Below are positions 2,522-58,870 of a stretch of DNA of 64,000 nt, piece after piece. The translations under genes were made by a program, and so were the position numbers. The DNA is taken from assembly GCA_032718475.1 (NCBI GenBank), contig JAUCBJ010006245.1, forward strand, positions 3,759 through 67,758, read 5' to 3'. The notes beneath the pieces were generated by a model. That model made no database searches. It was not told the DNA's origin and saw only the letters and a list, made by a program, of their open reading frames with translations. Numbering within the stretch: the first letter of the stretch is position 1; each line of letters begins with the position of its first letter. The stretch comes from Nemertoderma westbladi. Its lineage: Eukaryota; Animalia; Xenacoelomorpha.

Positions 2522-5500
2522 GCTCCCCACTCCCACAACCAACTCCCACCCAACCTACCTTTAGCATCAGCTCCCCACTCCCACAACCAACTCCCACCCA
2601 ACCTACCTTTAGCATCAGCTCCCCACTCCCACAACCAACTCCCACCCAACCTACCTTTAGCATCAGGTCCCCACTCCCACAACCAACTCCCACCCAACCT
2701 ACCTTTAGCATCAGCTCCCCACTCCCACAACCAACTCCCACCCAACCTACCTTTAGCATCAGCTCCCCACTCCCACAACCAACTCCCACCCAACCTACCT
2801 TTAGCATCAGCTCCCCACTCCCACAACCAACTCCCACCCAACCTACCTTTAGCATCAGCTCCCCACTCCCACAACCAACTCCCACCCAACCTACCTTTAG
2901 CATCAGCTCCCCACTCCCACAACCAACTCCCACCCAACCTACCTTTAGCATCAGCTCCCCACTCCCACAACCAACTCCCACCCAACCTACCTTTAGCATC
3001 AGCTCCCCACTCCCACAACCAACTCCCACCCAACCTACCTTTAGCATCAGCTCCCCACTCCCACAACCAACTCCCACCCAACCTACCTTTAGCATCAGCT
3101 CCCCACTCCCACAACCAACTCCCACCCAACCTACCTTTAGCATCAGCTCCCCACTCCCACAACCAACTCCCACCCAACCTACCTTTAGCATCAGCTCCCC
3201 ACTCCCACAACCAACTCCCACCCAACCTACCTTTAGCATCAGCTCCCCACTCCCACAACCAACTCCCACCCAACCTACCTTTAGCATCAGCTCCCCACTC
3301 CCACAACCAACTCCCACCCAACCTACCTTTAGCATCAGCTCCCCACTCCCACAACCAACTCCCACCCAACCTACCTTTAGCATCAGCTCCCCACTCCCAC
3401 AACCAACTCCCACCCAACCTACCTTTAGCATCAGCTCCCCACTCCCACAACCAACTCCCACCCAACCTACCTTTAGCATCAGCTCCCCACTCCCACAACC
3501 AACTCCCACCCAACCTACCTTTAGCATCAGCTCCCCACTCCCACAACCAACTCCCACCCAACCTACCTTTAGCATCAGCTCCCCACTCCCACAACCAACT
3601 CCCACCCAACCTACCTTTAGCATCAGCTCCCCACTCCCACAACCAACTCCCACCCAACCTACCTTTAGCATCAGCTCCCCACTCCCACAACCAACTCCCA
3701 CCCAACCTACCTTTAGCATCAGCTCCCCACTCCCACAACCAACTCCCACCCAACCTACCTTTAGCATCAGCTCCCCACTCCCACAACCAACTCCCACCCA
3801 ACCTACCTTTAGCATCAGCTCCCCACTCCCACAACCAACTCCCACCCAACCTACCTTTAGCATCAGCTCCCCACTCCCACAACCAACTCCCACCCAACCT
3901 ACCTTTAGCATCAGCTCCCCACTCCCACAACCAACTCCCACCCAACCTACCTTTAGCATCAGCTCCCCACTCCCACAACCAACTCCCACCCAACCTACCT
4001 TTAGCATCAGCTCCCCACTCCCACAACCAACTCCCACCCAACCTACCTTTAGCATCAGCTCCCCACTCCCACAACCAACTCCCACCCAACCTACCTTTAG
4101 CATCAGCTCCCCCCTCCCACAACCAACTCCCACCCAACCTACCTTTAGCATCAGCTCCCCACTCCCACAACCAACTCCCACCCAACCTACCTTTAGCATC
4201 AGCTCCCCACTCCCACAACCAACTCCCACCCAACCTACCTTTAGCATCAGCTCCCCACTCCCACAACCAACTCCCACCCAACCTACCTTTAGCATCAGCT
4301 CCCCCCTCCCACAACCAACTCCCACCCAACCTACCTTTAGCATCAGCTCCCCCCTCCCACAACCAACTCCCACCCAACCTACCTTTAGCATCAGCTCCCC
4401 ACTCCCACAACCAACTCCCACCCAACCTACCTTTAGCATCAGCTCCCCCTTCCCACAACCAACTCCCACCCAACCTACCTTTAGCATCAGCTCCCCCCTC
4501 CCACAACCAACTCCCACCCAACCTACCTTTAGCATCAGCTCCCCACTCCAACAACCAACTCCCACCCAACCTACCTTTAGCATCAGCTCCCCACTCCCAC
4601 AACCAACTCCCACCCAACCTACCTTTAGCATCAGCTCCCCCCTCCCACAACCAACTCCCACCCAACCTACCTTTAGCATCAGCTCCCCACTCCAACAACC
4701 AACTCCCACCCAACCTACCTTTAGCATCAGCTCCCCACTCCCACAACCAACTCCCACCCAACCTACCTTTAGCATCAGCTCCCCCCTCCCACAACCAACT
4801 CCCACCCAACCTACCTTTAGCATCAGCTCCCCACTCCAACAACCAACTCCCACCCAACCTACCTTTAGCATCAGCTCCCCACTCCAACAACCAACTCCCA
4901 CCCAACCTACCTTTAGCATCAGCTCCCCACTCCCACAACCAACTCCCACCCAACCTACCTTTAGCATCAGCTCCCCACTCCAACAACCAACTCCCACCCA
5001 ACCTACCTTTAGCATCAGCTCCCCACTCCCACAACCAACTCCCACCCAACCTACCTTTAGCATCAGCTCCCCACTCCCACAACCAACTCCCACCCAACCT
5101 ACCTTTAGCATCAGCTCCCCACTCCAACAACCAACTCCCACCCAACCTACCTTTAGCATCAGCTCCCCACTCCAACAACCAACTCCCACCCAACCTACCT
5201 TTAGCATCAGCTCCCCACTCCAACAACCAACTCCCACCCAACCTACCTTTAGCATCAGCTCCCCACTCCCACAACCAACTCCCACCCAACCTACCTTTAG
5301 CATCAGCTCCCCACTCCCACAACCAACTCCCACCCAACCTACCTTTAGCATCAGCTCCCCACTCCCACAACCAACTCCCACCCAACCTACCTTTAGCATC
5401 AGCTCCCCACTCCCACAACCAACTCCCACCCAACCTACCTTTAGCATCAGCTCCCCACTCCCACAACCAACTCCCACCCAACCTACCTTTAGCATCAGCT

Positions 5501-8500
5501 CCCCACTCCCACAACCAACTCCCACCCAACCTACCTTTAGCATCAGCTCCCCACTCCCACAACCAACTCCCACCCAACCTACCTTTAGCATCAGCTCCCC
5601 ACTCCCACAACCAACTCCCACCCAACCTACCTTTAGCATCAGCTCCCCACTCCCACAACCAACTCCCACCCAACCTACCTTTAGCATCAGCTCCCCACTC
5701 CCACAACCAACTCCCACCCAACCTACCTTTAGCATCAGCTCCCCACTCCCACAACCAACTCCCACCCAACCTACCTTTAGCATCAGCTCCCCACTCCCAC
5801 AACCAACTCCCACCCAACCTACCTTTAGCATCAGCTCCCCACTCCCACAACCAACTCCCACCCAACCTACCTTTAGCATCAGCTCCCCACTCCCACAACC
5901 AACTCCCACCCAACCTACCTTTAGCATCAGCTCCCCACTCCCACAACCAACTCCCACCCAACCTACCTTTAGCATCAGCTCCCCACTCCAACCTCCCTTT
6001 AGCATCAGCTCCCCACTCCCACAACCAACTCCCACCCAACCTACCTTTAGCATCAGCTCCCCACTCCCACAACCAACTCCCACCCAACCTACCTTTAGCA
6101 TCAGCTCCCCACTCCCACAACCAACTCCCACCCAACCTACCTTTAGCATCAGCTCCCCACTCCCACAACCAACTCCCACCCAACCTACCTTTAGCATCAG
6201 CTCCCCACTCCCACAACCAACTCCCACCCAACCTACCTTTAGCATCAGCTCCCCACTCCCACAACCAACTCCCACCCAACCTACCTTTAGCATCAGCTCC
6301 CCACTCCCACAACCAACTCCCACCCAACCTACCTTTAGCATCAGCTCCCCACTCCAACAACCAACTCCCACCCAACCTACCTTTAGCATCAGCTCCCCAC
6401 TCCAACAACCAACTCCCACCCAACCTACCTTTAGCATCAGCTCCCCACTCCAACAACCAACTCCCACCCAACCTACCTTTAGCATCAGCTCCCCACTCCA
6501 ACAACCAACTCCCACCCAACCTACCTTTAGCATCAGCTCCCCACTCCACAACCAACTCCCACCCAACCTACCTTTAGCATCAGCTCCCCACTCCAACAAC
6601 CAACTCCCACCCAACCTACCTTTAGCATCAGCTCCCCACTCCAACAACCAACTCCCACCCAACCTACCTTTAGCATCAGCTCCCCACTCCAACAACCAAC
6701 TCCCACCCAACCTACCTTTAGCATCAGCTCCCCACTCCAACAACCAACTCCCACCCAACCTACCTTTAGCATCAGCTCCCCACTCCCACAACCAACTCCC
6801 ACCCAACCTACCTTTAGCATCAGCTCCCCACTCCCACAACCAACTCCCACCCAACCTACCTTTAGCATCAGCTCCCCACTCCCACAACCAACTCCCACCC
6901 AACCTACCTTTAGCATCAGCTCCCCACTCCCACAACCAACTCCCACCCAACCTACCTTTAGCATCAGCTCCCCACTCCCACAACCAACTCCCACCCAACC
7001 TACCTTTAGCATCAGCTCCCCACTCCCACAACCAACTCCCACCCAACCTACCTTTAGCATCAGCTCCCCACTCCCACAACCAACTCCCACCCAACCTACC
7101 TTTAGCATCAGCTCCCCACTCCCACAACCAACTCCCACCCAACCTACCTTTAGCATCAGCTCCCCACTCCCACAACCAACTCCCACCCAACCTACCTTTA
7201 GCATCAGCTCCCCACTCCCACAACCAACTCCCACCCAACCTACCTTTAGCATCAGCTCCCCACTCCCACAACCAACTCCCACCCAACCTACCTTTAGCAT
7301 CAGCTCCCCACTCCCACAACCAACTCCCACCCAACCTACCTTTAGCATCAGCTCCCCACTCCCACAACCAACTCCCACCCAACCTACCTTTAGCATCAGC
7401 TCCCCACTCCAACCTCCCTTTAGCATCAGCTCCCCACTCCCACAACCAACTCCCACCCAACCTACCTTTAGCATCAGCTCCCCACTCCCACAACCAACTC
7501 CCACCCAACCTACCTTTAGCATCAGCTCTCCACTCCCACAACCAACTCCCACCCAACCTACCTTTAGCATCAGCTCTCCACTCCCACAACCAACTCCAAC
7601 CCAACCTACCTTTAGCATCAGCTCTCCACTCCCACAACCAACTCCCACCCAACCTACCTTTAGCATCAGCTCCCCACTCCAACCTCCCTTTAGCATCAGC
7701 TCCCCACTCCCACAACCAACTCCCACCCAACCTACCTTTAGCATCAGCTCCCCACTCCCACAACCAACTCCCACCCAACCTACCTTTAGCATCAGCTCCC
7801 CACTCCCACAACCAACTCCCACCCAACCTACCTTTAGCATCAGCTCCCCACTCCCACAACCAACTCCCACCCAACCTACCTTTAGCATCAGCTCTCCCAC
7901 CCAACCTACCTTTAGCATCAGCTCCCCCACCTTTAGCATCAGCTCTCCCACCCAACCTACCTTTAGCATCAGCTCCCCACTCCCACAACCAACTCCCACC
8001 CAACCTACCTTTAGCATCAGCTCCCCACTCCAACCTCCCTTTAGCATCAGCTCCCCACTCCCACAACCAACTCCCACCCAACCTACCTTTAGCATCAGCT
8101 CCCCACTCCCACAACCAACTCCCACCCAACCTACCTTTAGCATCAGCTCTCCACTCCCACAACCAACTCCCACCCAACCTACCTTTAGCATCAGCTCTCC
8201 ACTCCCACAACCAACTCCCACCCAACCTACCTTTAGCATCAGCTCCCCACTCCAACCTCCCTTTAGCATCAGCTCCCCACTCCCACAACCAACTCCCACC
8301 CAACCTACCTTTAGCATCAGCTCTCCACTCCCACAACCAACTCCCATCCAACCTACCTTTAGCATCAGCTCCCCACTCCCACAACCAACTCCCACCCAAC
8401 CTACCTTTAGCATCAGCTCTCCACTCCCACAACCAACTCCCACCCAACCTACCTTTAGCATCAGCTCCCCACTCCAACCTCCCTTTAGCATCAGCTCCCC

Positions 8501-11500
8501 ACTCCCACAACCAACTCCCACCCAACCTACCTTTAGCATCAGCTCTCCACTCCCACAACCAACTCCCACCCAACCTACCTTTAGCATCAGCTCTCCCACC
8601 ATCATCATCGCTCGCTGATGAACCATCATCATCACGAACCCCCAAATCAGCCAACTCCCACCCAACTTACCTTTAGCATCAGCTCTCCCACCCAACCTAC
8701 CTTTAGCATCAGCTCCCCACTCTAACAACCAACTCCCATCCAACCTACCTTTAGCATCAGCTCTCCCACCATCATCATCGCTCGCTGATGAACCATCATC
8801 ATCACGAACCCCCAAATCAGCCAACTCCCACCCAACCTACCTTTAGCATCAGCTCTCCCACCCAACCTACCTTTAGCATCAGCTCCCCACTCCAACAACA
8901 ACTCCCACCCAACCTACCTTTAGCATCAGCTCTCCACTCCCACAACCAACTCCCATCCAACCTACCTTTAGCATCAGCTCTCCCACCCAACCTACCTTTA
9001 GCATCAGCTCTCCCACCATCATCATCGCTCGCTGATGAACCATCATCATCACGAACCCCCAAATCAGCCAACTCCCACCCAACCTACCTTTAGCATCAGC
9101 TCTCCCACCCAACCTACCTTTAGCATCAGCTCTCCCACCCAACCTACCTTTAGCATCAGCACTCCCACCCAACCTACCTTTAGCATCAGCTCCCCACTCC
9201 CACAACCAACTCCCACCCAACCTACCTTTAGCATCAGCTCCCCACTCCAACAACCAACTCCCACCCCACCTACCTTTAGCATCAGCTCCCCACTCCAACA
9301 ACAACTCCCACCCAACCTACCTTTAGCATCAGCTCCCCACTCCCACAACCAACTCCCACCCAACCTACCTTTAGCATCAGCTCCCCACTCCAACAACCAA
9401 CTCCCACCCCACCTACCTTTAGCATCAGCTCCCCACTCCAACAACAACTCCCACCCAACCTACCTTTAGCATCAGCTCCCCACTCCCACAACCAACTCCC
9501 ACCCAACCTACCTTTAGCATCAGCTCCCCACTCCAACAACCAACTCCCACCCCACCTACCTTTAGCATCAGCTCCCCACTCCAACAACAACTCCCACCCA
9601 ACCTACCTTTATCATCAGCTCCCCACTCCCACAACCAACTCCCACCCCACCTACCTTTAGCATCAGCTCCCCACTCCCACAACCAACTCCCACCCAACCT
9701 ACCTTTAGCATCAACTCCCCACTCCAACAACCAACTCCCACCCAACCTACATTTAGCATCAGCTCTCCCACCTTTAGCATCAGCTCTCCCACCCAACCTA
9801 CCTTTAGCATCAGCTCCCCCCTCCCACAACCAACTCCCATCCAACCTACCTTTAGCATCAGCTCCCCACTCCAACAACCAACTCCCACCCCACCTACCTT
9901 TAGCATCAGCTCCCCACTCCAACAACCAACTCCCACCCAACCTACCTTTAGCATCAGCTCCCCACTCCAACAACAACTCCCAACCAACCTACCTTTAGCA
10001 TCAGCTCCCCACTCCAACAACAACAACTCCCAACCAACCTACCTTTAGCATCAGCTCTCCCACCCAACCTACCTTTAGCACCAGCTCTCCCACCCAACCT
10101 ACCTTTAGCATCAGCTCCCCACTCCCACAACCAACTCCCACCCAACCTACCTTTAGCATCAGATCCCCACTCCCACAACCAACTCCCACCCAACCTACCT
10201 TTAGCATCAGCTCCCCACTCCAACAACAACTCCCAACCAACCTACCTTTAGCATCAGCTCTCCCACCCAACCTACCTTTAGCATCAGCTCTCCTACCCAA
10301 AGTACCTTTAGCATCAGCTCTCCCACCCAACCTACCTTTAGCATCAGCTCTCCCACCCAACCTACCTTTAGCATCAGCTCCCCACTCCCACAACCAACTC
10401 CCACCCAACCTACATTTAGCATCAGCTCTCCCCCCTTTAGCATCAGCTCTCCCACCCAACCTACCTTTAGCATCAGCTCTCCCACACAACCTACCTTTAG
10501 CAACAGCTCCCCACTCCAACAACCAACTCCCACCCAACCTACCTTTAGCATCAGCTCCCCACTCCAACAACAACTCCCAACCAACCTACCTTTAGCATCA
10601 GCTCTCCCACCCAACCTACCTTTAGCATCAGCTCGACCACCCAACCTACCTTTAGCATCAGCTCTCCTACCCAACCTACCTTTAGCATCAGCTCTCCCAC
10701 CCAACCTACCTTTAGCATCAGCTCTCCCACCCAACCTACCTTTAGCATCAGCTCCCCACTCCCACAACCAACTCCCACCCAACCTACCTTTAGCATCAGC
10801 TCCCCACTCCAAAAAAAACTCCCAACCAACCTACCTTTAGCATCAGCTCTCCCACCCAACCTACCTTTAGCATCAGCTCCCCACTCCCACAACCAACTCC
10901 CACCCAACCTACCTTTAGAATCAACTCCCCACTCCAACAACAACTCCCACCCAACCTACCTTTAGCATCAGCTCCCCACTCCAACAACCAACTCCCACCC
11001 CACCTACCTTTAGAATCAACTCCCCACTCCAACAACAACTCCCACCCAACCTACCTTTAGCATCAGCTCCCCACTCCAACAACCAACTCCCACCCCACCT
11101 ACCTTTAGCATCAGCTTCCCACTCCAACAACCAACTCCCACCCAACCTACCTTTAGCATCAGCTTCCCACTCCAACAACCAACTCCCACCCAACCTACCT
11201 TTAGCATCAGCTCTCCCACCCAACCTACCTTTAGCATCAGCTCTCCCACCCAACCTACCTTTAGCATCAGCTCCCCACTCCCACAACCAACTCCCACCCA
11301 ACCTACCTTTAGCATCAGCTCCCCACTCCAACAACAACTCCCAACCAACCTACCTTTAGCATCAGCTCTCCCACCCAACCTACCTTTAGCATCAGCTCTC
11401 CCACCCAACCTACCTTTAGCATCAGCTCCCCACTCCCACAACCAACTCCCACCCAACCTACCTTTAGAATCAACTCCCCACTCCAACAACAACTCCCACC

Positions 11501-14500
11501 CAACCTACCTTTAGCATCAGCTCCCCACTCCAACAACCAACTCCCACCCCACCTACCTTTAGCATCAGCTCCCCACTCCAACAACCAACTCCCACCCAAC
11601 CTACCTTTAGAATCAACTCCCCACTCCAACAACAACTCCCACCCAACCTACCTTTAGCATCAGCTCCCCACTCCAACAACCAACTCCCACCCAACCTACC
11701 TTTAGAATCAACTCCCCACTCCAACAACAACTCCCACCCAACCTACCTTTAGCATCAGCTCCCCACTCCAACAACCAACTCCCACCCAACCTACCTTTAG
11801 AATCAACTCCCCACTCCAACAACAACTCCCACCCAACCTACCTTTAGCATCAGCTCCCCACTCCCACAACCAACTCCCACCCAACCTACCTTTAGAATCA
11901 ACTCCCCACTCCAACAACAACTCCCACCCAACCTACCTTTAGCATCAGCTCCCCACTCCAACAACCAACTCCCACCCCACCTACCTTTAGCATCAGCTCC
12001 CCACTCCAACAACCAACTCCCACCCAACCTACCTTTAGCATCAGCTCCCCACTCCAACAACCAACTCCCACCCAACCTACCTTTAGCATCAGCTCCCCAC
12101 TCCCACAACCAACTCCCACCCAACCTACCTTTAGCATCAGCTCCCCACTCCAACAACCAACTCCCACCCAACCTACCTTTAGCATCAGCTCCCCACACCA
12201 ACAACCAACTCCCACCCAACCTACATTTAGCATCAGCTCTCCCACCCAACCTACCTTTAGCATCAGCTCCCCCACCTTTAGCATCAGCTCTCCCACCCAA
12301 CCTACCTTTAGCATCAGCTCCCCCCTCCCACAACCAACTCCCATCCAACCTACCTTTAGCATCAGCTCCCCACTCCAACAACCAACTCCCACCCCACCTA
12401 CCTTTAGCATCAGCTCCCCACTCCAACAACCAACTCCCACCCAACCTACCTTTAGCATCAGCTCCCCACTCCAACAACCAACTCCCACCCAACCTACATT
12501 TAGCATCAGCTCTCCCACCCAACCCACCTTTAGCATCAGCTCTCCCACCTTTAGCATCAGCTCTCCCACCCAACCTACCTTTAGCATCAGCTCCCCCCTC
12601 CTACAACCAACTCCCATCCAACCTACCTTTAGCATCAGCTCCCCACTCCAACAACCAACTCCCACCCAACCTACCTTTAGCATCAGCTCCCCACTCCAAC
12701 AACCAACTCCCACCCAACCTACATTTAGCATCAGCTCTCCCACCTTTAGCATCAGCTCTCCCACCCAACCTACCTTTAGCATCAGCTCCCCCCTCCCACA
12801 ACCAACCCCCATCCAACCTACCTTTAGCATCAGCTCCCCACTCCAACAACCACTCCAACCCAACCTACCTTTAGCATCAGCTCTCCCACCTTTAGCATCA
12901 GCTCTCCCACCCAACCTACCTTTAGCATCAGCTCCCCCCTCCCACAACCAACTCCCATCCAACCTACCTTTAGCATCAGCTCCCCACTCCCACAACCAAC
13001 TCCCACCCAACCTACCTTTAGCATCAGCTCCCCACTCCAACAACAACTCCCAACCAACCTACCTTTAGCATCAGCTCTCCCACCCAACCTACCTTTAGCA
13101 TCAGCTCTCCCACACAACCTACCCTTAGCATCAGCTCCCCACTCCCACAACCACCTCCCACCCAACCTACCTTTAGCATCAGCGCCCCACTCCCACAACC
13201 AACTCCCACCCAACCTACCTTTAGCATCAGCTCCCCACTCCAACAACCAACTCCCACCCAACCTACCTTTAGCATCAGCTCTCCCACCCAAACTACCTTT
13301 AGCATCAGCGCCCCACTCCCACAACCAACTCCCACCCAACCTACCTTTAGCATCAGCTCCCCACTCCCACAACCAACTCCCACCCAACCTACCTTTAGCA
13401 TCAGCGCCCCACTCCCACAACCAACTCCCACCCAACCTACCTTTAGCATCAGCTTCCCACTCCAACAACCAACTCCCACCCAACCTACCTTTAGCATCAG
13501 CTCTCCCACCCAACCCACCTTTAGCATCAGCTCTCCCACACAACCTACCTTTAGCATCAGCGCCCCACTCCCACAACCAACTCCCACCCAACCTACCTTT
13601 AGCATCAGCTTCCCACTCCCACAACCAACTCCCACCCAACCTACCTTTAGCATCAGCGCCCCACTCCCACAACCAACTCCCACCCAACCTACCTTTAGCA
13701 TCAGCTTCCCACTCCAACAACAACTCCCAACCAACCTACCTTTAGCATCAGCTCTCCCACCCAACCTACCTTTAGCATCAGCTCTCCCACCCAACCTACC
13801 TTTAGCATCAGCGCCCCACTCCCACAACCAACTCCCACCCAACCTACCTTTAGCATCAGCTTCCCACTCCCACAACCAACTCCCACCCAACCTACCTTTA
13901 GCATCAGCTCCCCACTCCCACAACCAACTCCCACCCAACCTACCTTTAGCATCAGCGCCCCACTCCCACAACCAACTCCCACCCAACCTACCTTTAGCAT
14001 CAGCTTCCCACTCCAACAACCAACTCCCACCTAACCTACCTTTAGCATCAGCTCCCCACTCCAACAACAACTCCCAACCAACCTACCTTTAGCATCAGCT
14101 CTCCCACCCAACCTACCTTTAGCATCAGCTCTCCCACACAACCTACCTTTAGCATCAGCTCCCCACTCCCACAACCAACTCCCACCCAACCTACCTTTAG
14201 CATCAGCGCCCCACTCCCACAACCAACTCCCACCCAACCTACCTTTAGCATCAGCTCCCCACTCCAACAACCAACTCCCACCCAACCTACCTTTAGCATC
14301 AGCTCTCCCACCCAAACTACCTTTAGCATCAGCGCCCCACTCCCACAACCAACTCCCACCCCACCTACCTTTAGCATCAGCTCCCCACTCCCACAACCAA
14401 CTCCCACCCAACCTACCTTTAGCATCAGCGGATGTAGGAAAATTCGGTCCCGGACAATTCGGTCCCGGACAATTCGGTCCGGACAATTCGGTCCCGGACA

Positions 14501-15120
14501 ATTCGGTCCCGGACAATTCGGTCCCAAAACACTAAATAAATGGGACCGAATTGTCCGAGTCAGTATCCGGACAATTCGGTCCCGGACAATTCGGTCCCGG
14601 ACAATTCGGTCCCAAAACACAAAATTAATGGGACCGAATTGTCCGGGACCGAATTGTCCGGACCGAATTGTCCGGGACCGAATTGTCCTGCTTCCAGCAT
14701 CAGCTCCCCACTCCAACAACCAACTCCCACCCAACCTACCTTTAGCATCAGCTCTCCCACCCAACCTACCTTTAGCATCAGCTCCCCACTCCAACAACCA
14801 ACTCCCACCCAACCTACCTTTAGCATCAGCTCCCCACTCCCACAACCAACTCCCACCCAACCTACATTTAGCATCAGCTCTCCACTCCCACAACCAACTC
14901 CCACCCAACCTACCTTTAGCATCAGCTCTCCCACCCAACCTACCTTTAGCATCAGCTCTCCCACCCAACCTACCTTTAGCATCAGCTCCCCACTCCCACA
15001 ACCAACTCCCACCCCACCTACCTTTAGCATCAGCCCCCACTCCAACAACCAACTCCCACCCAACCTACCTTTAGCATCAGCTCTCCCACCCAACCTACCT
15101 TTAGCATCAGCTCTCCCACC
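2522..15120 (-). repeat. Intron 7 satellite: 48-bp (plus 30/47/18-bp variant) tandem array built from the exon 7 end and its donor
   Basis: Unit GAGCTGATGCTAAAG|gtaggttgggtgggagttggttgtgggagtggg; 30-mer GGTGGGAGAGCTGATGCTAAAG|gtaggttg; ~270-290 units by length. Confidence 0.97.
14430..14695. mobile_element. Foldback/MULE-like MITE inserted in the intron 7 satellite
   Basis: Inverted termini GGATGTAGGA.../...TCCTGCTTCC; arms built of 15-bp GGACAATTCGGTCCC repeats; 9-bp TSD AGCATCAGC (14421-14429, 14696-14704). Confidence 0.85.
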
Positions 15121-16403: not shown

Positions 16404-16419
16404 TCCAACACAATCCCAC

Positions 16420-16561: not shown

Positions 16562-16984
16562 CTAATAAAAATAAAATATTGTTACTTAGCAACGACTTTA
16601 TATCGTTGATATTAATGGTTACTGGTTCCATTTAAATTACCTACTAAGACACGCGCTCCACTGCACTGGTATATAAGTCGTATGTCATAGGTCGAAATAA
16701 ATTATGGAACACATTGGTTTCAATGGGAGCGTCTCCACTGGTATGTCATAGTTACGACAAATGAGTCGAAAGTGCATCTTTTGACATACGACGCATGAGT
16801 TATATCCGGCTAGAGGCCTGTGATTGGTTACTTTGTGTAGCTGCAAGCCAATATTGTACAGCAATTTATTACCAATGCTTACAGCATTCCTTATTTTAGT
16901 CTATACTTACCACTTTCGCATAACAGATAATAAAGAATATAATCATATATAATGAATGGGAGAATCTTTTAGGCTCGTTAAGCC

Positions 16985-21059: not shown

Positions 21060-21100
21060 ACTCCCCCCTTTAAGATTGAGTTTGTCTAACGAGATCGGAG

Positions 21101-39408: not shown

Positions 39409-39433
39409 CTAATTCAGAAAATAGATAATTAAA

Positions 39434-45400: not shown

Positions 45401-48400
45401 TCCACCACCCTAACGCTGGCCTCTAAACCCCGCTCTATCCCATCCAACTAACCTCCACCACCCTAACCCTGGCCTTTAAACCCCGCTCTATCCCGTCCAA
45501 CTAACCTCCACTGCCCTAACGCTGGCCTTTAAACCCCGCTCTATCCCGTCCAACTAACCTCCAACGCCCTAACGCTGGCCTCTAAACCCCGCTCTATCCC
45601 ATCCAACTAACCTCCACCACCCTAACCCTGGCCTTTAAACCCCGCTCTATCCCATCCATCTAACCTCCACCGCCCTAATGCTGGCCTTTAAACCCCGCTC
45701 TATCTCATCCAACTAACCTCCACCGCCCTAACGCTGGCCTTTAAACCCCGCTCTATCCCGTCCAACTAACCTCCACCACCCTATCGCTGGCCTTTAAACC
45801 CCGCTCTATCCCGTCCAACTAACCTCCACCACCCTAACGCTGGCCTTTAAACCCCGCTCTATCCCATCCATCTAACCTCCACCACCCTAACCCTGGCCTT
45901 TAAACCCTGCTCTATCCCATCCAACTAACCTCCACCGCCCTAATGCTGGCCTTTAAACCCCGCTCTATCTCATCCAACTAACCTACACCGCCCTAACGCT
46001 GGCCTTTAAACCCCGCTCTATCCCATCCATCTAACCTCCACCGCCCTAACGCTGGCCTTTAAACCCCGCTCTATCCCATCCAACTAACCTCCACCACGCT
46101 AACGCTGGCCTTTAAACCCCGCTCTATCCCATCCAACTAACCTCCACCACCCTAACGCTGGCCTTTAAACCCCGCTCTATCTCATCCAACTAACCTACAC
46201 CGCCCTAACGCTGGCCTTTAAACCCCGCTCTATCCCATCCATCTAACCTCCACCGCCCTAACGCTGGCCTTTAAACCCCGCTCTATCCCATCCAACTAAC
46301 CTCCACCACCCTAACGCTGGCCTTTAAACCCCCCTCTATCTCATCCAACTAACCTCCACCACCCTAACGATGGGCTTTAAACCCCGCTCTATCCCGTCCA
46401 ACTAACCTCCACCGCCCTAATGCTGGCCTTTAAACCCCGCTCTATCCCGTCCAACTAACCTCCCTGCCCTAACGCTGGCCTTTAAACCCCTCTCTATCCC
46501 GCCCAACTAACCTCCACCGCCCTAACGCTGGCCTTTAAACCCCGCTCTATCCCGTCCAACTAACCTCCACCACCCTAACGCTGGCCTCTAAACCCCGCTC
46601 TATCCCATCCAACTAACCTCCACCACCCTAACCCTGGCCTTTAAACCCCGTTCTATCCCGTCCAACTAACCTCCACCACCCTAACCCTGGCCTTTAAACC
46701 CCGCTCTATCTCATCCAACTAACCTCCACCGCCCTAACGCTGGCCTTTAAACCCCACTCTATCCCATCCAACTAACCTCCACCGCCCTAACGCTGGCCTT
46801 TAAACCCCGTTCTATCCCATCCAACTAACCTCCACCGCCCTAACACTGGCCTTTAAACCCCGTTCTATCCCTTCCAACTAACCTCCACCACCCTAACGCT
46901 GGCCTTTAAACCCCGCTCTATCCCATCCAACTAACCTCCACCGCCCTAACGCTGGCCTTTAAACCCCGTTCTATCCCGTCCAACTAACCTCCACCACCCT
47001 AACCCTGGCCTTTAAACCCTGCTCTATCCCATCCAACTAACCTCCACCGCCCTAACACTGGCCTTTAAACCCCCCTCTATCTCATCCAACTAACCTCCAC
47101 CACCCTAACGATGGGCTTTAAACCCCGCTCTATCCCGTCCAACTAACCTCCACCGCCCTAATGCTGGCCTTTAAACCCCGCTCTATCCCATCCAACTAAC
47201 CTCCACCACCCTAACCCTGGCCTTTAAACCCCGCTCTATCCCATCCATCTAACCTCCACCACCCTAACGCTGGCCTTTAAACCCCGCTCTATCTCATCCA
47301 ACTAACCTACACCGCCCTAACGCTGGCCTTTAAACCCCGCTCTATCTCATCCAACTAACCTCCACCGCCCTAACGCTGGCCTTTAAACCCCGTTCTATCC
47401 CGTCCATCTAACCTCCACCACCCTAACCCTGGCCTTTAAACCCCGCTCTATCCCATCCATCTAACCTCCACCACCCTAACGCTGGCCTTTAAACCCCGCT
47501 CTATCCCATCCATCTAACCTCCACCACCCTAACGCTGGCCTTTAAACCCCGCTCTATCTCATCCAACTAACCTACACCGCCCTAACGCTGGCCTTTAAAC
47601 CCCGCTCTATCCCATCCAACTAACCTCCACCACCCTAACGCTGGCCTCTAAACCCCGCTCTATCCCATCCAACTAACCTCCACCACCCTAACCCTGGCCT
47701 TTAAACCCCGCTCTATCCCGTCCAACTAACCTCCACCGCCCTAACGCTGGCCTTTAAACCCCGCTCTATCCCGTCCAACTAACCTCCACCACCCTAACGC
47801 TGGCCTCTAAACCCTGCTCTATCCCATCCAACTAACCTCCACCACCCTAACCCTGGCCTTTAAACCCCGCTCTATCCCGTCCAACTAACCTCCACCACCC
47901 TAACGCTGGCCTCTAAACCCCGCTCTATCCCATCCAACTAACCTCCACCACCCTAACCCTGGCCTTTAAACCCCGCTCTATCCCGTCCAACTAACCTCCA
48001 CTGCCCTAACGCTGGCCTTTAAACCCCGCTCTATCCCGTCCAACTAACCTCCAACGCCCTAACGCTGGCCTCTAAACCCCGCTCTATCCCATCCAACTAA
48101 CCTCCACCACCCTAACCCTGGCCTTTAAACCCCGCTCTATCCCATCCATCTAACCTCCACCGCCCTAATGCTGGCCTTTAAACCCCGCTCTATCTCATCC
48201 AACTAACCTCCACCGCCCTAACGCTGGCCTTTAAACCCCGCTCTATCCCGTCCAACTAACCTCCACCACCCTATCGCTGGCCTTTAAACCCCGCTCTATC
48301 CCGTCCAACTAACCTCCACCACCCTAACGCTGGCCTTTAAACCCCGCTCTATCCCATCCATCTAACCTCCACCACCCTAACCCTGGCCTTTAAACCCTGC

Positions 48401-51400
48401 TCTATCCCATCCAACTAACCTCCACCGCCCTAATGCTGGCCTTTAAACCCCGCTCTATCTCATCCAACTAACCTACACCGCCCTAACGCTGGCCTTTAAA
48501 CCCCGCTCTATCCCATCCATCTAACCTCCACCGCCCTAACGCTGGCCTTTAAACCCCGCTCTATCCCATCCAACTAACCTCCACCACGCTAACGCTGGCC
48601 TTTAAACCCCGCTCTATCCCATCCAACTAACCTCCACCACCCTAACGCTGGCCTTTAAACCCCGCTCTATCTCATCCAACTAACCTACACCGCCCTAACG
48701 CTGGCCTTTAAACCCCGCTCTATCCCATCCATCTAACCTCCACCGCCCTAACGCTGGCCTTTAAACCCCGCTCTATCCCATCCAACTAACCTCCACCACC
48801 CTAACGCTGGCCTTTAAACCCCCCTCTATCTCATCCAACTAACCTCCACCACCCTAACGATGGGCTTTAAACCCCGCTCTATCCCGTCCAACTAACCTCC
48901 ACCGCCCTAATGCTGGCCTTTAAACCCCGCTCTATCCCGTCCAACTAACCTCCCTGCCCTAACGCTGGCCTTTAAACCCCTCTCTATCCCGCCCAACTAA
49001 CCTCCACCGCCCTAACGCTGGCCTTTAAACCCCGCTCTATCCCGTCCAACTAACCTCCACCACCCTAACGCTGGCCTCTAAACCCCGCTCTATCCCATCC
49101 AACTAACCTCCACCACCCTAACCCTGGCCTTTAAACCCCGTTCTATCCCGTCCAACTAACCTCCACCACCCTAACCCTGGCCTTTAAACCCCGCTCTATC
49201 TCATCCAACTAACCTCCACCGCCCTAACGCTGGCCTTTAAACCCCACTCTATCCCATCCAACTAACCTCCACCGCCCTAACGCTGGCCTTTAAACCCCGT
49301 TCTATCCCATCCAACTAACCTCCACCGCCCTAACACTGGCCTTTAAACCCCGTTCTATCCCTTCCAACTAACCTCCACCACCCTAACGCTGGCCTTTAAA
49401 CCCCGCTCTATCCCATCCAACTAACCTCCACCGCCCTAACGCTGGCCTTTAAACCCCGTTCTATCCCGTCCAACTAACCTCCACCACCCTAACCCTGGCC
49501 TTTAAACCCTGCTCTATCCCATCCAACTAACCTCCACCGCCCTAACACTGGCCTTTAAACCCCCCTCTATCTCATCCAACTAACCTCCACCACCCTAACG
49601 ATGGGCTTTAAACCCCGCTCTATCCCGTCCAACTAACCTCCACCGCCCTAATGCTGGCCTTTAAACCCCGCTCTATCCCATCCAACTAACCTCCACCACC
49701 CTAACCCTGGCCTTTAAACCCCGCTCTATCCCATCCATCTAACCTCCACCACCCTAACGCTGGCCTTTAAACCCCGCTCTATCTCATCCAACTAACCTAC
49801 ACCGCCCTAACGCTGGCCTTTAAACCCCGCTCTATCTCATCCAACTAACCTCCACCGCCCTAACGCTGGCCTTTAAACCCCGTTCTATCCCGTCCATCTA
49901 ACCTCCACCACCCTAACCCTGGCCTTTAAACCCCGCTCTATCCCATCCATCTAACCTCCACCACCCTAACGCTGGCCTTTAAACCCCGCTCTATCCCATC
50001 CATCTAACCTCCACCACCCTAACGCTGGCCTTTAAACCCCGCTCTATCTCATCCAACTAACCTACACCGCCCTAACGCTGGCCTTTAAACCCCGCTCTAT
50101 CTCATCCAACTAACCTCCACCGCCCTAACGCTGGCCTTTAAACCCCCCTCTATCTCATCCAACTAACCTCCACCGCCCTAACGCTGGCCTTTAAACCCCG
50201 CTCTATCTCATCCAACTAACCTACACCGCCCTAACGCTGGCCTTTAAACCCCGCTCTATCTCATCCAACTAACCTACACCGCCCTAACGCTGGCCTTTAA
50301 ACCCCGCTCTATCTCATCCAACTAACCTCCACCGCCCTAACGCTGGCCTTTAAACCCCCCTCTATCCCATCCAACTAACCTCCACCGCCCTAACGCTGGC
50401 CTTTAAACCCCGTTCTATCCCATCCAACTAACCTCCACCGCCCTAACACTGGCCTTTAAACCCCGTTCTATCCCGTCCAACTAACCTCCACCACCCTAAC
50501 GCTGGCCTTTAAACCCCACTCTATCCCATCCAACTAACCTCCACCGCCCTAACACTGGCCTTTAAACCCCGTTCTATCCCGTCCAACTAACCTCCACCGC
50601 CCTAACGCTGGCCTTTAAACCCCGCTCAATCTCATCCAACTAACCTCCACCGCCCTAACGCTGGCCTTTAAACCCCACTCTATCCCATCCAACTAACCTC
50701 CACCGCCCTAACGCTGGCCTTTAAACCCCGCTCTATCTCATCCAACTAACCTCCACCGCCCTAACGCTGGCCTTTAAACCCTGCTCTATCTCATCCAACT
50801 AACCTCCACCGCCCTAACGCTGGCCTTTAAACCCCGCTCTATCTCATCCAACTAACCTCCACCGCCCTAATGCTGGCCTTTAAACCCCACTCTATCCCAT
50901 CCAACTAACCTCCACCGCCCTAACGCTGGCCTTTAAACCCCGCTCTATCTCATCCAACTAACCTCCACCGCCCTAACGCTGGCCTTTAAACCCCGCTCTA
51001 TCTCATCCAACTAACCTCCACCGCCCTAACGCTGGCCTTTAAACCCCGTTCTATCCCGTCCAACTAACCTCCACCGCCCTAACGCTGGCCTTTAAACCCC
51101 GTTCTATCCCATCCAACTAACCTCCACCGCCCTAACACTGGCCTTTAAACCCCGTTCTATCCCGTCCAACTAACCTCCACCACCCTAACGCTGGCCTTTA
51201 AACCCCGCTCTATCCCATCCAACTAACCTCCACCGCCCTAACGCTGGCCTTTAAACCCCGTTCTATCCCGTCCAACTAACCTCCACCACCCTAACCCTGG
51301 CCTTTAAACCCTGCTCTATCCCATCCAACTAACCTCCACTGCCCTAACGCTGGCCTTTAAACCCCGCTCTATCCCATCCAACTAACCTCCACCGCCCTAA

Positions 51401-54400
51401 CGCTGGCCTTTAAACCCCGCTCTATCCCATCCAACTAACCTCCACCACCCTAACGCTGGCCTCTAAACCCCGCTCTATCCCATCCAACTAACCTCCACCG
51501 CCCTAACGCTGGCCTTTAAACCCCGCTCTATCCCATCCAACTAACCTCCACCACCCTAACGCTGGCCTCTAAACCCCGCTCTATCCCATCCAACTAACCT
51601 CCACCACCCTAACCCTGGCCTTTAAACCCCGCTCTATCCCGTCCAACTAACCTCCACCGCCCTAACGCTGGCCTTTAAACCCCGCTCTATCCCGTCCAAC
51701 TAACCTCCACCACCCTAACGCTGGCCTCTAAACCCCGCTCTATCCCATCCAACTAACCTCCACCACCCTAACCCTGGCCTTTAAACCCCGCTCTATCCCG
51801 TCCAACTAACCTCCACCACCCTAACGCTGGCCTCTAAACCCCGCTCTATCCCATCCAACTAACCTCCACCACCCTAACCCTGGCCTTTAAACCCCGCTCT
51901 ATCCCGTCCAACTAACCTCCACTGCCCTAACGCTGGCCTTTAAACCCCGCTCTATCCCGTCCAACTAACCTCCAACGCCCTAACGCTGGCCTCTAAACCC
52001 CGCTCTATCCCATCCAACTAACCTCCACCACCCTAACCCTGGCCTTTAAACCCCGCTCTATCCCATCCATCTAACCTCCACCGCCCTAATGCTGGCCTTT
52101 AAACCCCGCTCTATCTCATCCAACTAACCTCCACCGCCCTAACGCTGGCCTTTAAACCCCGCTCTATCCCGTCCAACTAACCTCCACCACCCTATCGCTG
52201 GCCTTTAAACCCCGCTCTATCCCGTCCAACTAACCTCCACCACCCTAACGCTGGCCTTTAAACCCCGCTCTATCCCATCCATCTAACCTCCACCACCCTA
52301 ACCCTGGCCTTTAAACCCTGCTCTATCCCATCCAACTAACCTCCACCGCCCTAATGCTGGCCTTTAAACCCCGCTCTATCTCATCCAACTAACCTACACC
52401 GCCCTAACGCTGGCCTTTAAACCCCGCTCTATCCCATCCATCTAACCTCCACCGCCCTAACGCTGGCCTTTAAACCCCGCTCTATCCCATCCAACTAACC
52501 TCCACCACGCTAACGCTGGCCTTTAAACCCCGCTCTATCCCATCCAACTAACCTCCACCACCCTAACGCTGGCCTTTAAACCCCGCTCTATCTCATCCAA
52601 CTAACCTACACCGCCCTAACGCTGGCCTTTAAACCCCGCTCTATCCCATCCATCTAACCTCCACCGCCCTAACGCTGGCCTTTAAACCCCGCTCTATCCC
52701 ATCCAACTAACCTCCACCACCCTAACGCTGGCCTTTAAACCCCCCTCTATCTCATCCAACTAACCTCCACCACCCTAACGATGGGCTTTAAACCCCGCTC
52801 TATCCCGTCCAACTAACCTCCACCGCCCTAATGCTGGCCTTTAAACCCCGCTCTATCCCGTCCAACTAACCTCCCTGCCCTAACGCTGGCCTTTAAACCC
52901 CTCTCTATCCCGCCCAACTAACCTCCACCGCCCTAACACTGGCCTTTAAACCCCCCTCTATCTCATCCAACTAACCTCCACCACCCTAACGATGGGCTTT
53001 AAACCCCGCTCTATCCCGTCCAACTAACCTCCACCGCCCTAATGCTGGCCTTTAAACCCCGCTCTATCCCATCCAACTAACCTCCACCGCCCTAACGCTG
53101 GCCTTTAAACCCCCCTCTATCTCATCCAACTAACCTCCACCGCCCTAACGCTGGGCTTTAAACCCCGCTCTATCCCGTCCAACTAACCTCCACCGCCCTA
53201 ATGCTGGCCTTTAAACCCCGCTCTATCCCATCCAACTAACCTCCACCGCCCTAATGCTGGCCTTTAAACCCCGCTCTATCCCATCCAACTAACCTCCACC
53301 GCCCTAACGCTGGCCTTTAAACCCCCCTCTATCTCATCCAACTAACCTCCACCACCCTAACGCTGGGCTTTAAACCCCGCTCTATCCCGTCCAACTAACC
53401 TCCACCGCCCTAACGCTGGCCTTTAAACCCCCCTCTATCCCGTCCAACTAACCTCCACCGCCCTAACGCTGGGCTTTAAACCCCGCTCTATCCCGTCCAA
53501 CTAACCTCCCTGCCCTAACACTGGCCTTTCAACCCCACTCTATCCCATCCAACTAACCTCCACCGCCCTAACGCTGGCCTTTAAACCCCCCTCTATCCCA
53601 TCCAACTAACCTCCACCGCCCTAACGCTGGCCTTTAAACCCCCCTCTATCTCATCCAACTAACCTCCACCACCCTAACGCTGGCCTTTAAACCCCGTTCT
53701 ATCCCGTCCAACTAACCTCCCTGCCCTAACACTGGCCTTTAAACCCCGCTCTATCCCGTCCAACTAACCTCCACCGCCCTAATGCTGGCCTTTAAACCCC
53801 GTTCTATCCCATCCAACTAACCTCCACCGCCCTAACGCTGGCCTTTAAACCCCCCTCTATCTCATCCAACTAACCTCCACCGCCCTAACGCTGGCCTTTA
53901 AACCCCCCTCTATCTCATCCAACTAACCTCCACCACCCTAACGATGGGCTTTAAACCCCGCTCTATCCCGTCCAACTAACCTCCCTGCCCTAACGCTGGC
54001 CTTTAAACCCCGTTCTATCCCATCCAACTAACCTCCACCGCCCTAACGCTGGCCTTTAAACCCCCCTCTATCTCATCCAACTAACCTCCACCACCCTAAC
54101 GCTGGCCTTTAAACCCCGTTCTATCCCGTCCAACTAACCTCCCTGCCCTAACGCTGGCCTTTAAACCCCGCTCTATCCCGTCCAACTAACCTCCACCGCC
54201 CTAATGCTGGCCTTTAAACCCCGTTCTATCCCATCCAACTAACCTCCACCGCCCTAACGCTGGCCTTTAAACCCCCCTCTATCTCATCCAACTAACCTCC
54301 ACCGCCCTAACGCTGGCCTTTAAACCCCCCTCTATCTCATCCAACTAACCTCCACCACCCTAACGATGGGCTTTAAACCCCGCTCTATCCCGTCCAACTA

Positions 54401-57400
54401 ACCTCCCTGCCCTAATGCTGGCCTTTAAACCCTGCTCTATCCCATCCAACTAACCTCCACCGCCCTAACGCTGGCCTTTAAACCCCCCTCTATCTCATCC
54501 AACTAACCTCCACCGCCCTAACGCTGGCCTTTAAACCCCCCTCTATCTCATCCAACTAACCTCCACCACCCTAACGATGGGCTTTAAACCCCGCTCTATC
54601 CCGTCCAACTAACCTCCACCGCCCTAACGCTGGCCTTTAAACCCCCCTCTATCTCATCCAACTAACCTCCACCACCCTAACGCTGGCCTTTAAACCCCGT
54701 TCTATCCCGTCCAACTAACCTCCCTGCCCTAACGCTGGCCTTTAAACCCCGCTCTATCCCGTCCAACTAACCTTCACCGCCCTAACGCTGGCCTTTAAAC
54801 CCCGCTCTATCCCGTCCAACTAACCTCCACCGCCCTAACGCTGGCCTTTAAACCCCCCTCTATCTCATCCAACTAACCTCCACCGCCCTAACGCTGGCCT
54901 TTAAACCCCCCTCTATCTCATCCAACTAACCTCCACCACCCTAACGATGGGCTTTAAACCCCCCTCTATCTCATCCAACTAACCTCCACCACCCTAACGC
55001 TGGCCTTTAAACCCCCCTCTATCTCATCCAACTAACCTCCACCACCCTAACGATGGGCTTTAAACCCCCCTCTATCTCATCCAACTAACCTCCACCGCCC
55101 TAACGCTGGCCTTTAAACCCCCCTCTATCTCATCCAACTAACCTCCACCACCCTAACGCTGGCCTTTAAACCCCCCTCTATCTCATCCAACTAACCTCCA
55201 CCACCCTAACGCTGGCCTTTAAACCCCCCTCTATCTCATCCAACTAACCTCCACCACCCTAACGATGGGCTTTAAACCCCCCTCTATCTCATCCAACTAA
55301 CCTCCACCGCCCTAACGCTGGCCTTTAAACCCCCCTCTATCTCATCCAACTAACCTCCACCACCCTAACGATGGGCTTTAAACCCCCCTCTATCTCATCC
55401 AACTAACCTCCACCGCCCTAACGCTGGCCTTTAAACCCCCCTCTATCTCATCCAACTAACCTCCACCACCCTAACGCTGGCCTTTAAACCCCCCTCTATC
55501 TCATCCAACTAACCTCCACCACCCTAACGCTGGCCTTTAAACCCCCCTCTATCTCATCCAACTAACCTCCACCACCCTAACGATGGGCTTTAAACCCCCC
55601 TCTATCTCATCCAACTAACCTCCACCACCCTAACGATGGGCTTTAAACCCCGCTCTATCCCGTCCAACTAACCTCCACCGCCCTAACGCTGGCCTTTAAA
55701 CCCCCCTCTATCTCATCCAACTAACCTCCACCACCCTAACGCTGGCCTTTAAACCCCTCTCTATCTCATCCAACTAACCTCCACCACCCTAACGCTGGCC
55801 TTTAAACCCCCCTCTATCTCATCCAACTAACCTCCACCACCCTAACGATGGGCTTTAAACCCCCCTCTATCTCATCCAACTAACCTCCACCGCCCTAACG
55901 CTGGCCTTTAAACCCCCCTCTATCTCATCCAACTAACCTCCACCACCCTAACGCTGGCCTTTAAACCCCTCTCTATCTCATCCAACTAACCTCCACCACC
56001 CTAACGCTGGCCTTTAAACCCCGCTCTATCTCATCCAACTAACCTCCACCGCCCTAACGATGGGCTTTAAACCCCGCTCTATCCCGTCCAACTAACCTCC
56101 CTGCCCTAACGCTGGCCTTTAAACCCCCCTCTATCTCATCCAACTAACCTCCACCACCCTAACGATGGGCTTTAAACCCCGCTCTATCTCATCCAACTAA
56201 CCTACACCGCCCTAACGCTGGCCTTTAAACCCCGTTCTATCCCGTCCAACTAACCTCCACCGCCCTAACGCTGGCCTTTAAACCCCCCTCTATCTCATCC
56301 ATCTAACCTCCACCGCCCTAACGCTGGCCTTTAAACCCCCCTCTATCTCATCCAACTAACCTCCACCACCCTAACGATGGGCTTTAAACCCCGCTCTATC
56401 CCGTCCAACTAACCTCCACCGCCCTAACGCTGGCCTTTAAACCCCCCTCTATCTCATCCAACTAACCTCCACCACCCTAACGCTGGCCTTTAAACCCCGT
56501 TCTATCCCGTCCAACTAACCTCCACCGCCCTAATGCTGGCCTTTAAACCCCCCTCTATCTCATCCAACTAACCTACACCGCCCTAACGCTGGCCTTTAAA
56601 CCCCGCTCTATCTCATCCAACTAACTTCCACCGCCCTAACGCTGGCCTTTAAACCCCACTCTATCCTGTCCAACTAACCTCCACCACCCTAACGCTGGCC
56701 TTTAAACCCTGCTCTATCCCATCCAACTAACCTCCACCGCCCTAACGCTGGCCTTTAAACCCCGCTCTATCTCATCCAACTAACCTCCACCGCCCTAATG
56801 CTGGCCTTTAAACCCCGTTCAATCCCGTCCAACTAACCTCCACCGCCCTAACGCTGGCCTTTAAACCCCGCTCTATCTCATCCAACTAACCTACACCGCC
56901 CTAATGCTGGCCTTTAAACCCCGTTCTATCCCGTCCAACTAACCTCCACCGCCCTAACGCTGGCCTTTAAACCCCGTTCTATCCCGTCCAACTAACCTAC
57001 ACTGCCCTAACACTGGCCTTTAAACCCCGTTCTATCCCGTCCAACTAACCTCCACCACCCTAACGCTGGCCTTTAAACCCCGCTCTATCCCATCCAACTA
57101 ACCTCCACCGCCCTAACTACTACTACTACTACTAGGATCGGCATGCTGCATTGCAGCTGCATTTTTAAGAATGCTGTGCCGGCTTGTCAACAAAATTGCA
57201 CCGCCACAACTACCTATCACCCATGACATTTGCTAGATCATCCGCATCTTTAAGGCCAGTGTCCTTTAAGATGCGTCTCAAGAAAGTCATGGGCTGTCCA
57301 CCATGCTTATTCACTCCATGAGGCTGCCAAAGTACAAGATTATGCACTGGCTGGTCCTCACGGCGAAAGCAATGTCATGCAAAGCGGAGGCGATTTTGTT

Positions 57401-58870
57401 CTAGTGTCAAGCTTGGGGGAACCAATGAGACACCTCCAATGTTATATAGTGTCTGGTTGGAGATGAGTGCATTGTACTTGACACAATGAACCCGGCGTAG
57501 CATTCTTGTGAATGTGCCATCCAGAGATTTGGTGTCCTCAGCAGTTAGAGCCCAGCATGGACTCCCGTAGAGGAGTACTGGAACTACTGCTGCTCTAAAT
57601 AATCGGACCTTAAGTTTCCGATTAATTCTCGGTGACTTCCAAATCCTGGAAAGCCTATTCAAGGCTGCCCATGCCTTTCCCTTACGTATTCGAAGGTCCT
57701 CATCTGACTTCCGGATCCATGATCCCAGGTAACAGAAGTCGTCCACCACATGCTCAAGCATACCATCCTTTGAGCTTATGCTCATCCGATCAGAGACTTG
57801 CTGAGGACTTTCAAAGTTAACTGTCAGAATTTTGGTCTTTCTGGAGTTAATAAAAAGACCAACACTAGAAGCAGCATGTTCTAATGAGCTGAGGAGCCGT
57901 TGGGCTCCCTCTAATGATTCTGAGAGTACTCCTAAGTCATCAGCAAAATCTAGATCAGTTAGGTACTTGGCAGGATTTCCTCGACTTCTGGAGCCAGTAG
58001 GTGGAGTTATCATCACCCCATCATCATTATAATGATCTAAGGACATGCGTAGAACATAGTCAACCACAATAATGAACAAGAATGGTGCAAGTGTGTCTCC
58101 TTGGAGGACGCCCCATAACACTTCAAATGGTTCTGTGTCACCGTCAACAGTAGACACAAATGTTGTCGAACCATCGAATACTGATCTGATTGCTGCAATA
58201 ATTTCATCAGGAATTCCATATAATGAAAGTATGCTGAACATACGTGAGCGAGAGACTGGATCAAAGGCCTTGAAGAAGTCAACAAAGATAACAGCCAGAT
58301 GCCTGTCTTTCTTTTTTGATAACTCTTCAATTATCCTTCTAAGTGCCAAAATGGGCTCCATGGTCCCACGACCTTTACGGAACCCATTCTGATTTCCACG
58401 GAGCAGTCTCTCAATGGGATCCCTGATGCGATTTAATAGAATCCTATTGTATAGCTTTGCAGCAATCGAGATCAATGAGATTCCCCGAAAAGAACCATAG
58501 AGTGTTAGGTTGCCCTTCTTGGGAACTGCCACCAATTTATTTGTTTTCATTTCTTGTGGGACTCTTGTTGTTCGGCCTTTCAACCCCACTCTATCCCATC
58601 CAACTAACCTCCACCGCCCTAACGCTGGCCTTTAAACCCCGTTCTATCCCGTCCAACTAACCTCCACCGCCCTAACGCTGGCCTTTAAACCCCGCTCTAT
58701 CCCATCCAACTAACCTCCACCACCCTAACGCTGGCCTTTAAACCCCGTTCTATCCCGTCCAACTAACCTCCACCGCCCTAACGCTGGCCTTTAAACCCCG
58801 TTCTATCCCATCCAACTAACCTCCACCGCCCTAACGCTGGCCTTTAAACCCCGCTCTATCCCATCCAACT
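39434..58870 (-). repeat. Intron 4 satellite: 53-bp tandem array built from the exon 4 end and its donor
   Basis: Unit GTTGGATGGGATAGAGCGGGGTTTAAAGGCCAGCGTTAGGGCGGTGGAG|gtta; ~340 units, interrupted by RTE at 57118-58573. Confidence 0.97.
57118..58573 (-). mobile_element. 5'-truncated RTE-clade LINE (RT domain + 3' end) with (TAG)n tail
   Basis: PKKG..FRGISL, QNGFRKGRGT, VDFFKAFD, GVLQGDTLAPFLF, DFADD, RLRFA*H; tail TAGTAGTAGTAGTAG; no clear TSD. Confidence 0.93.

Follow-up and report, generated by a model that had tools for sequence, protein, structure and literature searches.

Introduction

Minisatellites whose repeat unit spans an exon-intron boundary have been named 'mirages' in lancelets (PMC3087553; PMC3902484), where they occur in Adh3, the globin genes BflGb6 and BflGb9, troponin C and PGBD5, and their origin has been called unclear (PMC3087553). 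Here we analyse the gene CLUAP1 of the xenacoelomorph Nemertoderma westbladi in a window of 64,000 nt (contig JAUCBJ010006245.1, positions 3,759 to 67,758), where three introns carry large arrays built from the end of the preceding exon and its 5' splice site, or donor. As in the lancelet mirages, the unit spans the exon-intron boundary and reiterates the splice site while normal splicing is kept, and, as in lancelet Adh3 (10-72 bp), several unit lengths occur within one gene. Canestro et al. 2002 reportedly found most Adh3 minisatellites to be mirages. The two systems differ in scale, since BflGb6 has 3-6 copies whereas the CLUAP1 arrays have 59 to about 335 copies and extend over 3-18 kb each. 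Moreover, lancelet mirages lie on both sides of the boundary, whereas all three CLUAP1 arrays are donor-side, and the host animal is no close match to a lancelet (CLUAP1 protein identity 55-68%).

Donor-spanning minisatellites are also known from five human genes, namely F7 (intervening sequence 7, IVS7; 37 bp), 6-16, CBS (IVS13), LMNB2 and PDGF (intron 4), and in F7 minigenes the most upstream donor was chosen (PMC1557585). These resemble CLUAP1 in that the first unit carries the true donor, later units carry identical pseudo-donors and splicing takes place at the most upstream site. The human arrays comprise 5-26 copies, one array per gene, whereas CLUAP1 has three arrays with ten times the copy number. 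An original prediction, made from the letters of the window, had known of no description of such a recurrent system. In view of the lancelet and human cases this does not hold: the CLUAP1 arrays are an unusually large case of the known mirage kind of minisatellite and not a new system. What is new is a matter of degree, namely the size of the arrays and a heptamer, GAGTTGG, that they have in common, so that a known type of repeat is stretched from tens of copies to satellite scale. In the literature covered, which was partial and had most subscription journals outside it, we found no mirage this large and no genome-wide survey of donors versus acceptors.

Three further systems are comparable in part. 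Microhomology-mediated tandem duplication is described as general and mostly neutral (PMC13167724). As in CLUAP1, a single-copy segment between short repeats is duplicated and expands, and one of our arrays has four unit classes that agree with overlapping duplications differing in their arms. PMC13167724 mentions neither introns nor splice sites (0 matches for each), and in CLUAP1 the microhomology is visible for some units only. The chicken tandem repeat LL2R, with more than 5 donors per 2 kb, concentrates small nuclear RNAs (snRNAs) on nascent RNA and, like the CLUAP1 arrays, is a transcribed tandem repeat with an excess of donors and few polyadenylation signals (bioRxiv 10.64898/2026.03.19.712899). 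However, LL2R is a non-coding transcription unit with cytological evidence, whereas the CLUAP1 arrays are intronic, exon-derived, about eight times denser in donors and known from sequence alone. Giant introns of Drosophila Y genes are inflated by tandem DNA to megabase size (PMC6508621). The CLUAP1 introns with arrays are likewise inflated by tandem DNA and measure 12-23 kb. The Drosophila Y introns contain simple satellites that are not known to derive from exon ends.

Results

CLUAP1 lies on the minus strand of the window, as do its exons, its arrays and the inserts in them. The original prediction placed arrays of exon end plus donor in introns 4, 5 and 7, with the true exon as the first copy of each, and our analysis confirms this. 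Every unit holds an exon tail and a donor, the unit consensus equals the exon copy at all positions scored, and the net array lengths of 17.9, 3.2 and 12.3 kb add up to 33.4 kb. Array 4 (39443..58820) repeats a 53-nt unit consisting of the tail of exon 4 (59000-58821), whose final 49-50 nt are copy one, and the first 3-4 nt of the donor. It comprises about 335 copies, of which 318 were matched by the anchor and 17 are hidden, one in each of 17 spacings of 105 nt. Array 5 (36108..39274) starts with the final 47 nt of exon 5 (39408-39275); its 59 copies have a 54-nt unit (47 nt of exon and 7 nt of intron) or, in five cases, a 60-nt variant. Array 7 (2522..15098), which follows exon 7 (15288-15099), has 278 copies. 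The prediction had given its unit 15-22 nt of exon. Tails of 15 and 22 nt are indeed present, and the array proved to be a mosaic of 48/47-, 30-, 21- and 92-nt units, so that the final 15, 22 or 79 nt of the exon are copied. Unit classes are mixed near exon 7 and give way to almost pure 48-mers at the far end. The 79-nt tail is found in three 92-nt units (approximately 8560..9090), joined at GAGTTGG about 6 kb from exon 7. All copy counts include the true donor, and copies were located with an anchor that contains the donor.

The GT of the donor is preserved in 313 of 318 copies of array 4, in all 59 of array 5 and in 271 of 278 of array 7, and the donor 9-mer is identical to the true donor in 260, 53 and 252 copies, respectively. 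Altogether the arrays hold about 630 good donor motifs (330 + 52 + 251), one per ~50 nt. The sense strand of all three arrays is G-rich (skew 0.58-0.81), and in arrays 4 and 5 the identity of the copies shows no trend with distance from the exon. Only exons 4, 5 and 7 have tails that are copied elsewhere in the window (other exons, 0 of 5). The chance that three arrays start across a donor is about 2e-4 when six arrays and all non-array DNA are considered, and about 3e-3 when only the four arrays outside transposons are counted; both estimates are rough, refer to one gene and were chosen post hoc. The layout predicted for arrays 4 and 7 stands as far as their position across the donor is concerned and needs amending in that both are split, array 4 by a long interspersed nuclear element (LINE; 57118-58573) and array 7 by an insert resembling a miniature inverted-repeat transposable element (MITE; ~14432-14695).

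CLUAP1 is the intraflagellar transport protein IFT38. The gene was identified by the Pfam family PF10234, which is carried by 770 of the 782 candidate proteins obtained in a search with exon 2. Among the best 25 of 120 listed homologs, the spliced protein is 55-68% identical to those of lancelets, corals, an echinoderm, an amphibian and cartilaginous fish, and no close relative is present among these 25. A search for close relatives with exon 4 gave one match in 362 candidates, at 56% identity. The gene model spans 59.8 kb and has eight exons and two alternative terminal exons. Besides the three exons given above these are exon 1 (61482-61461), exon 2 (61249-61053), exon 3 (59485-59306), exon 6 (16561-16420), the tail of which is uncopied, and exon 8 (2447-2356), which lies upstream of both terminal exons (2214-2077 and 1874-1713). 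All introns are GT-AG and the frame is open; their lengths are, in order, 211, 1567, 305, 19,412, 22,713, 1131 and 12,651 nt. Over half of a conserved 60-kb ciliary gene consists of copied donors. The proposal that the arrays account for intron size applies to introns 4 and 7; 19.5 of the 22.7 kb of intron 5 are not array, so intron growth in CLUAP1 is not due to arrays alone and intron 5 is mostly transposon DNA.

In alignments with the homologs, the residues encoded by the copied tails of exons 4 and 5 are conserved. Since these tails are conserved coding sequence, arrays 4 and 5 derive from the exons, in agreement with the predicted role of the exon as source. Sequence comparison establishes the direction from exon to array in two cases, exons 4 and 5, whereas the acidic tail of exon 7 is too poorly conserved for such a proof. 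The whole units of the three arrays are unrelated (165-345 of 1000 shuffles score equally high in alignment), which argues for three separate origins, and a common origin is ruled out by this whole-unit alignment. The three unrelated units of the original prediction therefore stand as whole units, although their exonic starts have GAGTTGG in common. Two other candidates for a common cause were rejected. A telomere-like origin fails because TTAGGG occurs in unit 4 only, inside coding sequence, and classic G-quadruplex motifs (loops of at most 12 nt) number 129 in array 7, 31 in array 4 and 0 in array 5.

Four public sequencing runs (X1-X4) were compared with 200 bases around exon 5; X1 represents one sample, possibly the source of the window, and X2 and X3 represent another sample from a separate study. 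Units 4 and 5, unit-to-unit junctions included, were present in many short contigs of X1, X2 and X3 (three of the four runs, from two samples and two studies), and a 172-nt contig of X2 spans the last partial unit 4 into exon 5. The presence of units and junctions in the reads of both samples shows that arrays 4 and 5 are real and common to the two, with lengths taken from the assembly. With regard to copy-number instability between alleles or cells, a further feature of mirages, the summed contig depths of units 4 and 5 were 2668 and 1521 versus 359 and 795, with the order reversed between the samples; these depths are not copy numbers, and the query holds only 34 nt of the degenerate unit 4.

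Run X4 gave a single contig of 1363 nt that is exact over exon 5 and continues to exon 6 and to the end of exon 4. In this contig (contig 24 of the run) exon 5 is joined directly to exon 6, which demonstrates that intron 5 is spliced from its first donor. Beyond exon 5 the contig has 426 nt, which correspond to exons 6, 7 and 8 (424 nt) plus 2 nt common to both terminal exons. As this leaves no space for a unit of 21-48 nt, the length of the contig indicates that the first donor of intron 7 is used as well. The contig may be a processed copy of the gene in DNA, but the word share of run X4, 0.21, equals the exon share of the query and X4 yielded no array-unit contig. The contig stops where the two terminal exons diverge, which suggests that both are in use. 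Both terminal exons (window 1713-2214) end in DSDDDF followed by a stop.

With regard to selection, no lower variation was seen at the copied donors than at other positions of the unit (Mann-Whitney p = 0.475, 0.080, 0.271 and 0.756 for 295, 52, 189 and 53 units), and distinct changes within the donor 9-mer amount to 7 of 38 (6.5 expected) and 4 of 29 (4.8 expected); the test is weak. CpG sites are the most variable (0.163 vs 0.03-0.04), a pattern that resembles drifting DNA, and no codon-position pattern was found in the copies. The polyadenylation signals AATAAA and ATTAAA are absent from the 33 kb of array. All 22 sense signals of intron 5 lie in its non-array part, at least 1.5 kb beyond array 5, whereas the reported median reach of U1 in Drosophila is about 500 nt (PMC4889658). 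The exceptions near arrays are two signals in the LINE insert and one just past array 7. Without their arrays, introns 4 and 7 would measure about 0.1 kb or less and would need no protection from polyadenylation.

Discussion

Our data are probably best explained by three donor-spanning mirage arrays, each with the real exon first, that started at microhomology, expanded neutrally and are tolerated. Features of mirages seen here are a minisatellite unit spanning the boundary, a splice site reiterated in most copies, an authentic exon that is both terminal copy and source, and normal splicing at the authentic site, observed directly for intron 5 and deduced from length for intron 7. Each array was likely started by a microhomology-mediated duplication across the exon end and donor. 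The trigger may have been short words common to the G-rich exon tail and the G/T-rich intron head, both sides of which are seen for the 92-nt unit only (7 nt). Growth by ordinary slippage and unequal exchange likely followed. Donor-side duplications would survive selection since the protein is unchanged, and the arrays are likely tolerated since splicing picks the most upstream donor; the copied donors would then be neutral. The spliced contig, which takes the first donor, bears out the predicted tolerance, and the LINE and the MITE-like insert inside the arrays also count for the mirage explanation. The copies are thus likely tolerated rather than functional. CLUAP1 can be regarded as a natural stress test of the rule that the first donor wins, with one true site facing about 330 near-identical ones.

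Array 7 records several copying events of the exon 7 tail, which differ in their ends (21, 30, 48 and 92 nt), and in intron 7 the exon tail and intron head match over 8 nt at lag 30 and over 7 nt at lag 92, the longest and tied second-longest matches of 86 lags. Several observations weigh against the mirage explanation. The microhomology test takes the sequence after the last copy of array 7 as the ancestral intron head and is partly circular, the main 48-nt unit has a match of only 4 nt, and a 7-nt match at lag 43 has no corresponding unit. The array-free donors also carry matches of 6-8 nt, and therefore microhomology does not explain which exons were hit. For introns 4 and 5 the ancestral heads are unreadable; that of intron 4 seems to be lost because only about 25 nt separate the end of array 4 from the acceptor of exon 5. 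The comparison of donor positions with the rest of the unit is a weak test, as the copies are related and the anchor includes the donor, and the six intronic donor positions (+1 to +6) are invariant in all 52 array 5 units (p = 0.08). The evidence on donor use is one contig of one run and covers introns 5 and 7, and assembled contigs lose rare isoforms. Upstream of exon 5 this contig has 803 nt that include a 5' untranslated region of unknown extent, making it uninformative on the donor of intron 4. Finally, three arrays in one gene with a common GAGTTGG start exceed what a site-blind process would lead one to expect.

This last point would be met by a lineage-wide, motif-guided mutational process aimed at donors, which would supplement the mirage explanation rather than replace it. 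GAGTTGG, a G-rich word on the sense strand upstream of a donor, could mark the place where slippage or template switching re-enters, perhaps at R-loops, with existing arrays seeding neighbours. The heptamer occurs once each in exons 4, 5 and 7 where the copied piece begins (-51, -47 and -79) and in none of the five other exons; when breakpoints were drawn at random 200,000 times, a heptamer common to exons 4 and 5 turned up in 315 draws and one common to all three exons in 8, the motif itself having been picked post hoc. The G-rich sense strands, a fourth array that begins about 16 nt past the exon 6 donor and the lack of acceptor-spanning arrays in CLUAP1 point the same way. We nevertheless regard such a process as a doubtful addition. 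It is drawn from one gene, in exon 7 the motif coincides with the start of the 92-nt unit alone, which is rare (3 of 278 copies) and lies 6 kb into array 7, and GAGTTGG is simply a Glu-Leu codon pair. Furthermore, lancelet mirages are reported at both 5' and 3' boundaries (PMC3087553), and selection alone would also yield an excess of donors. Still more speculative, and in our estimation improbable, is the extension that GAGTTGG upstream of GT-rich donors predicts genome-wide which exon ends amplify to satellites of 3-18 kb, and that about 40 donors per 2 kb make the nascent RNA a sponge for U1, whereby the host gene is transcribed more slowly. If it were true, donor amplification would be a rule-governed route to intron expansion, and a breakpoint word that held genome-wide would give a sequence rule for where mirages arise.

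A functional role of the copies appears far less probable. The arrays had been proposed as selected U1 landing pads, which would either protect transcripts from premature polyadenylation (telescripting) or gather splicing factors and thereby slow transcription. The density of donor motifs would suit this role, as would two precedents: the chicken repeat concentrates spliceosomal snRNAs with far fewer donors (bioRxiv 10.64898/2026.03.19.712899), and in large Drosophila introns AATAAA signals are accompanied by cryptic donors (PMC4889658). Yet neither polyadenylation signals within U1 range nor donor motifs kept by selection, the latter by a weak test, were found, and introns 4 and 7 would be too short without arrays to need protection. 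We consequently give selection for U1 binding very little credence; binding of U1 as a by-product is plausible. Equally improbable is a role of the copies as a ladder of alternative donors, through which CLUAP1 would gain peptide repeats or transcripts would be routed to decay. Unit lengths in arrays 5 and 7 are divisible by three, the frame stays open past the donor for 532 and 536 nt, respectively, and the human genes 6-16 and CBS use two extra copies (PMC1557585), but the single spliced contig uses first donors, read-through from the true donor into the 53-nt units of array 4 meets a stop after 15 nt, and the copies have no codon-position pattern. Least probable of all is an assembly artefact. 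Array 7 is known from the assembly alone, and its far 5 kb are almost perfectly uniform, so its length could be mis-sized. The contigs of three of the four runs with units 4 and 5 and their junctions, the one bridging the end of array 4 into exon 5, and 76 and 37 distinct unit variants contradict an artefact.

Other repeats in the window

Next to its 3' acceptor, intron 4 retains no more than about 25 nt outside the array (window 39409-39443), and it may now depend on some repeat copies for a spliceable length. The LINE that interrupts array 4 (57118..58573, minus strand), 247 nt into the array, is 5'-truncated and has a 418-codon open frame with reverse transcriptase (RT)-like motifs recognised by eye and a (TAG)n tail. 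It joins the array via microhomology in its tail, and no target-site duplication was seen. A second copy, a 3' piece at 35117-35618 in intron 5, is 94% identical over 504 nt. The MITE-like insert of array 7 consists of 15-nt repeats in inverted blocks, has a 9-bp target-site duplication and is presumably Mutator- or Foldback-like.

The remainder of intron 5 (16562..36107, minus strand, 19.5 kb) contains long terminal repeat (LTR) retrotransposon and LINE sequence as well as arrays of 63 and 66 nt that are not exon-derived. It is mostly retrotransposon, with Pfam RT, RNase H, integrase and endonuclease domains in five of nine frames scanned. Two direct repeats of 176 bp (20887-21062 and 32502-32677) are 97.7% identical and possibly represent the LTR pair of a Ty3/gypsy-like element (RT, RNase H and integrase at 21101-23835) with a nested LINE at 24596-28314. 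The frame of this LINE holds an in-frame, proline-rich 66-nt array.

Intron 6 contains a degenerate 22-nt array (15639..16403, minus strand) that begins about 16 nt past the exon 6 donor, is not exon-derived and has 15 GTRAG motifs; if it is counted, four consecutive introns begin with an array. The 9-mer AACAGGAAC occurs only twice in the window, at 15632-15640 and 2513-2521 on the minus strand, directly following the end of this 22-nt array and the end of array 7, and the pair may be due to chance or be a templated patch. In addition, a dispersed repeat is present in three diverged copies (73-75% identical) at 1246-1429, 60008-60332 and 63538-63867.

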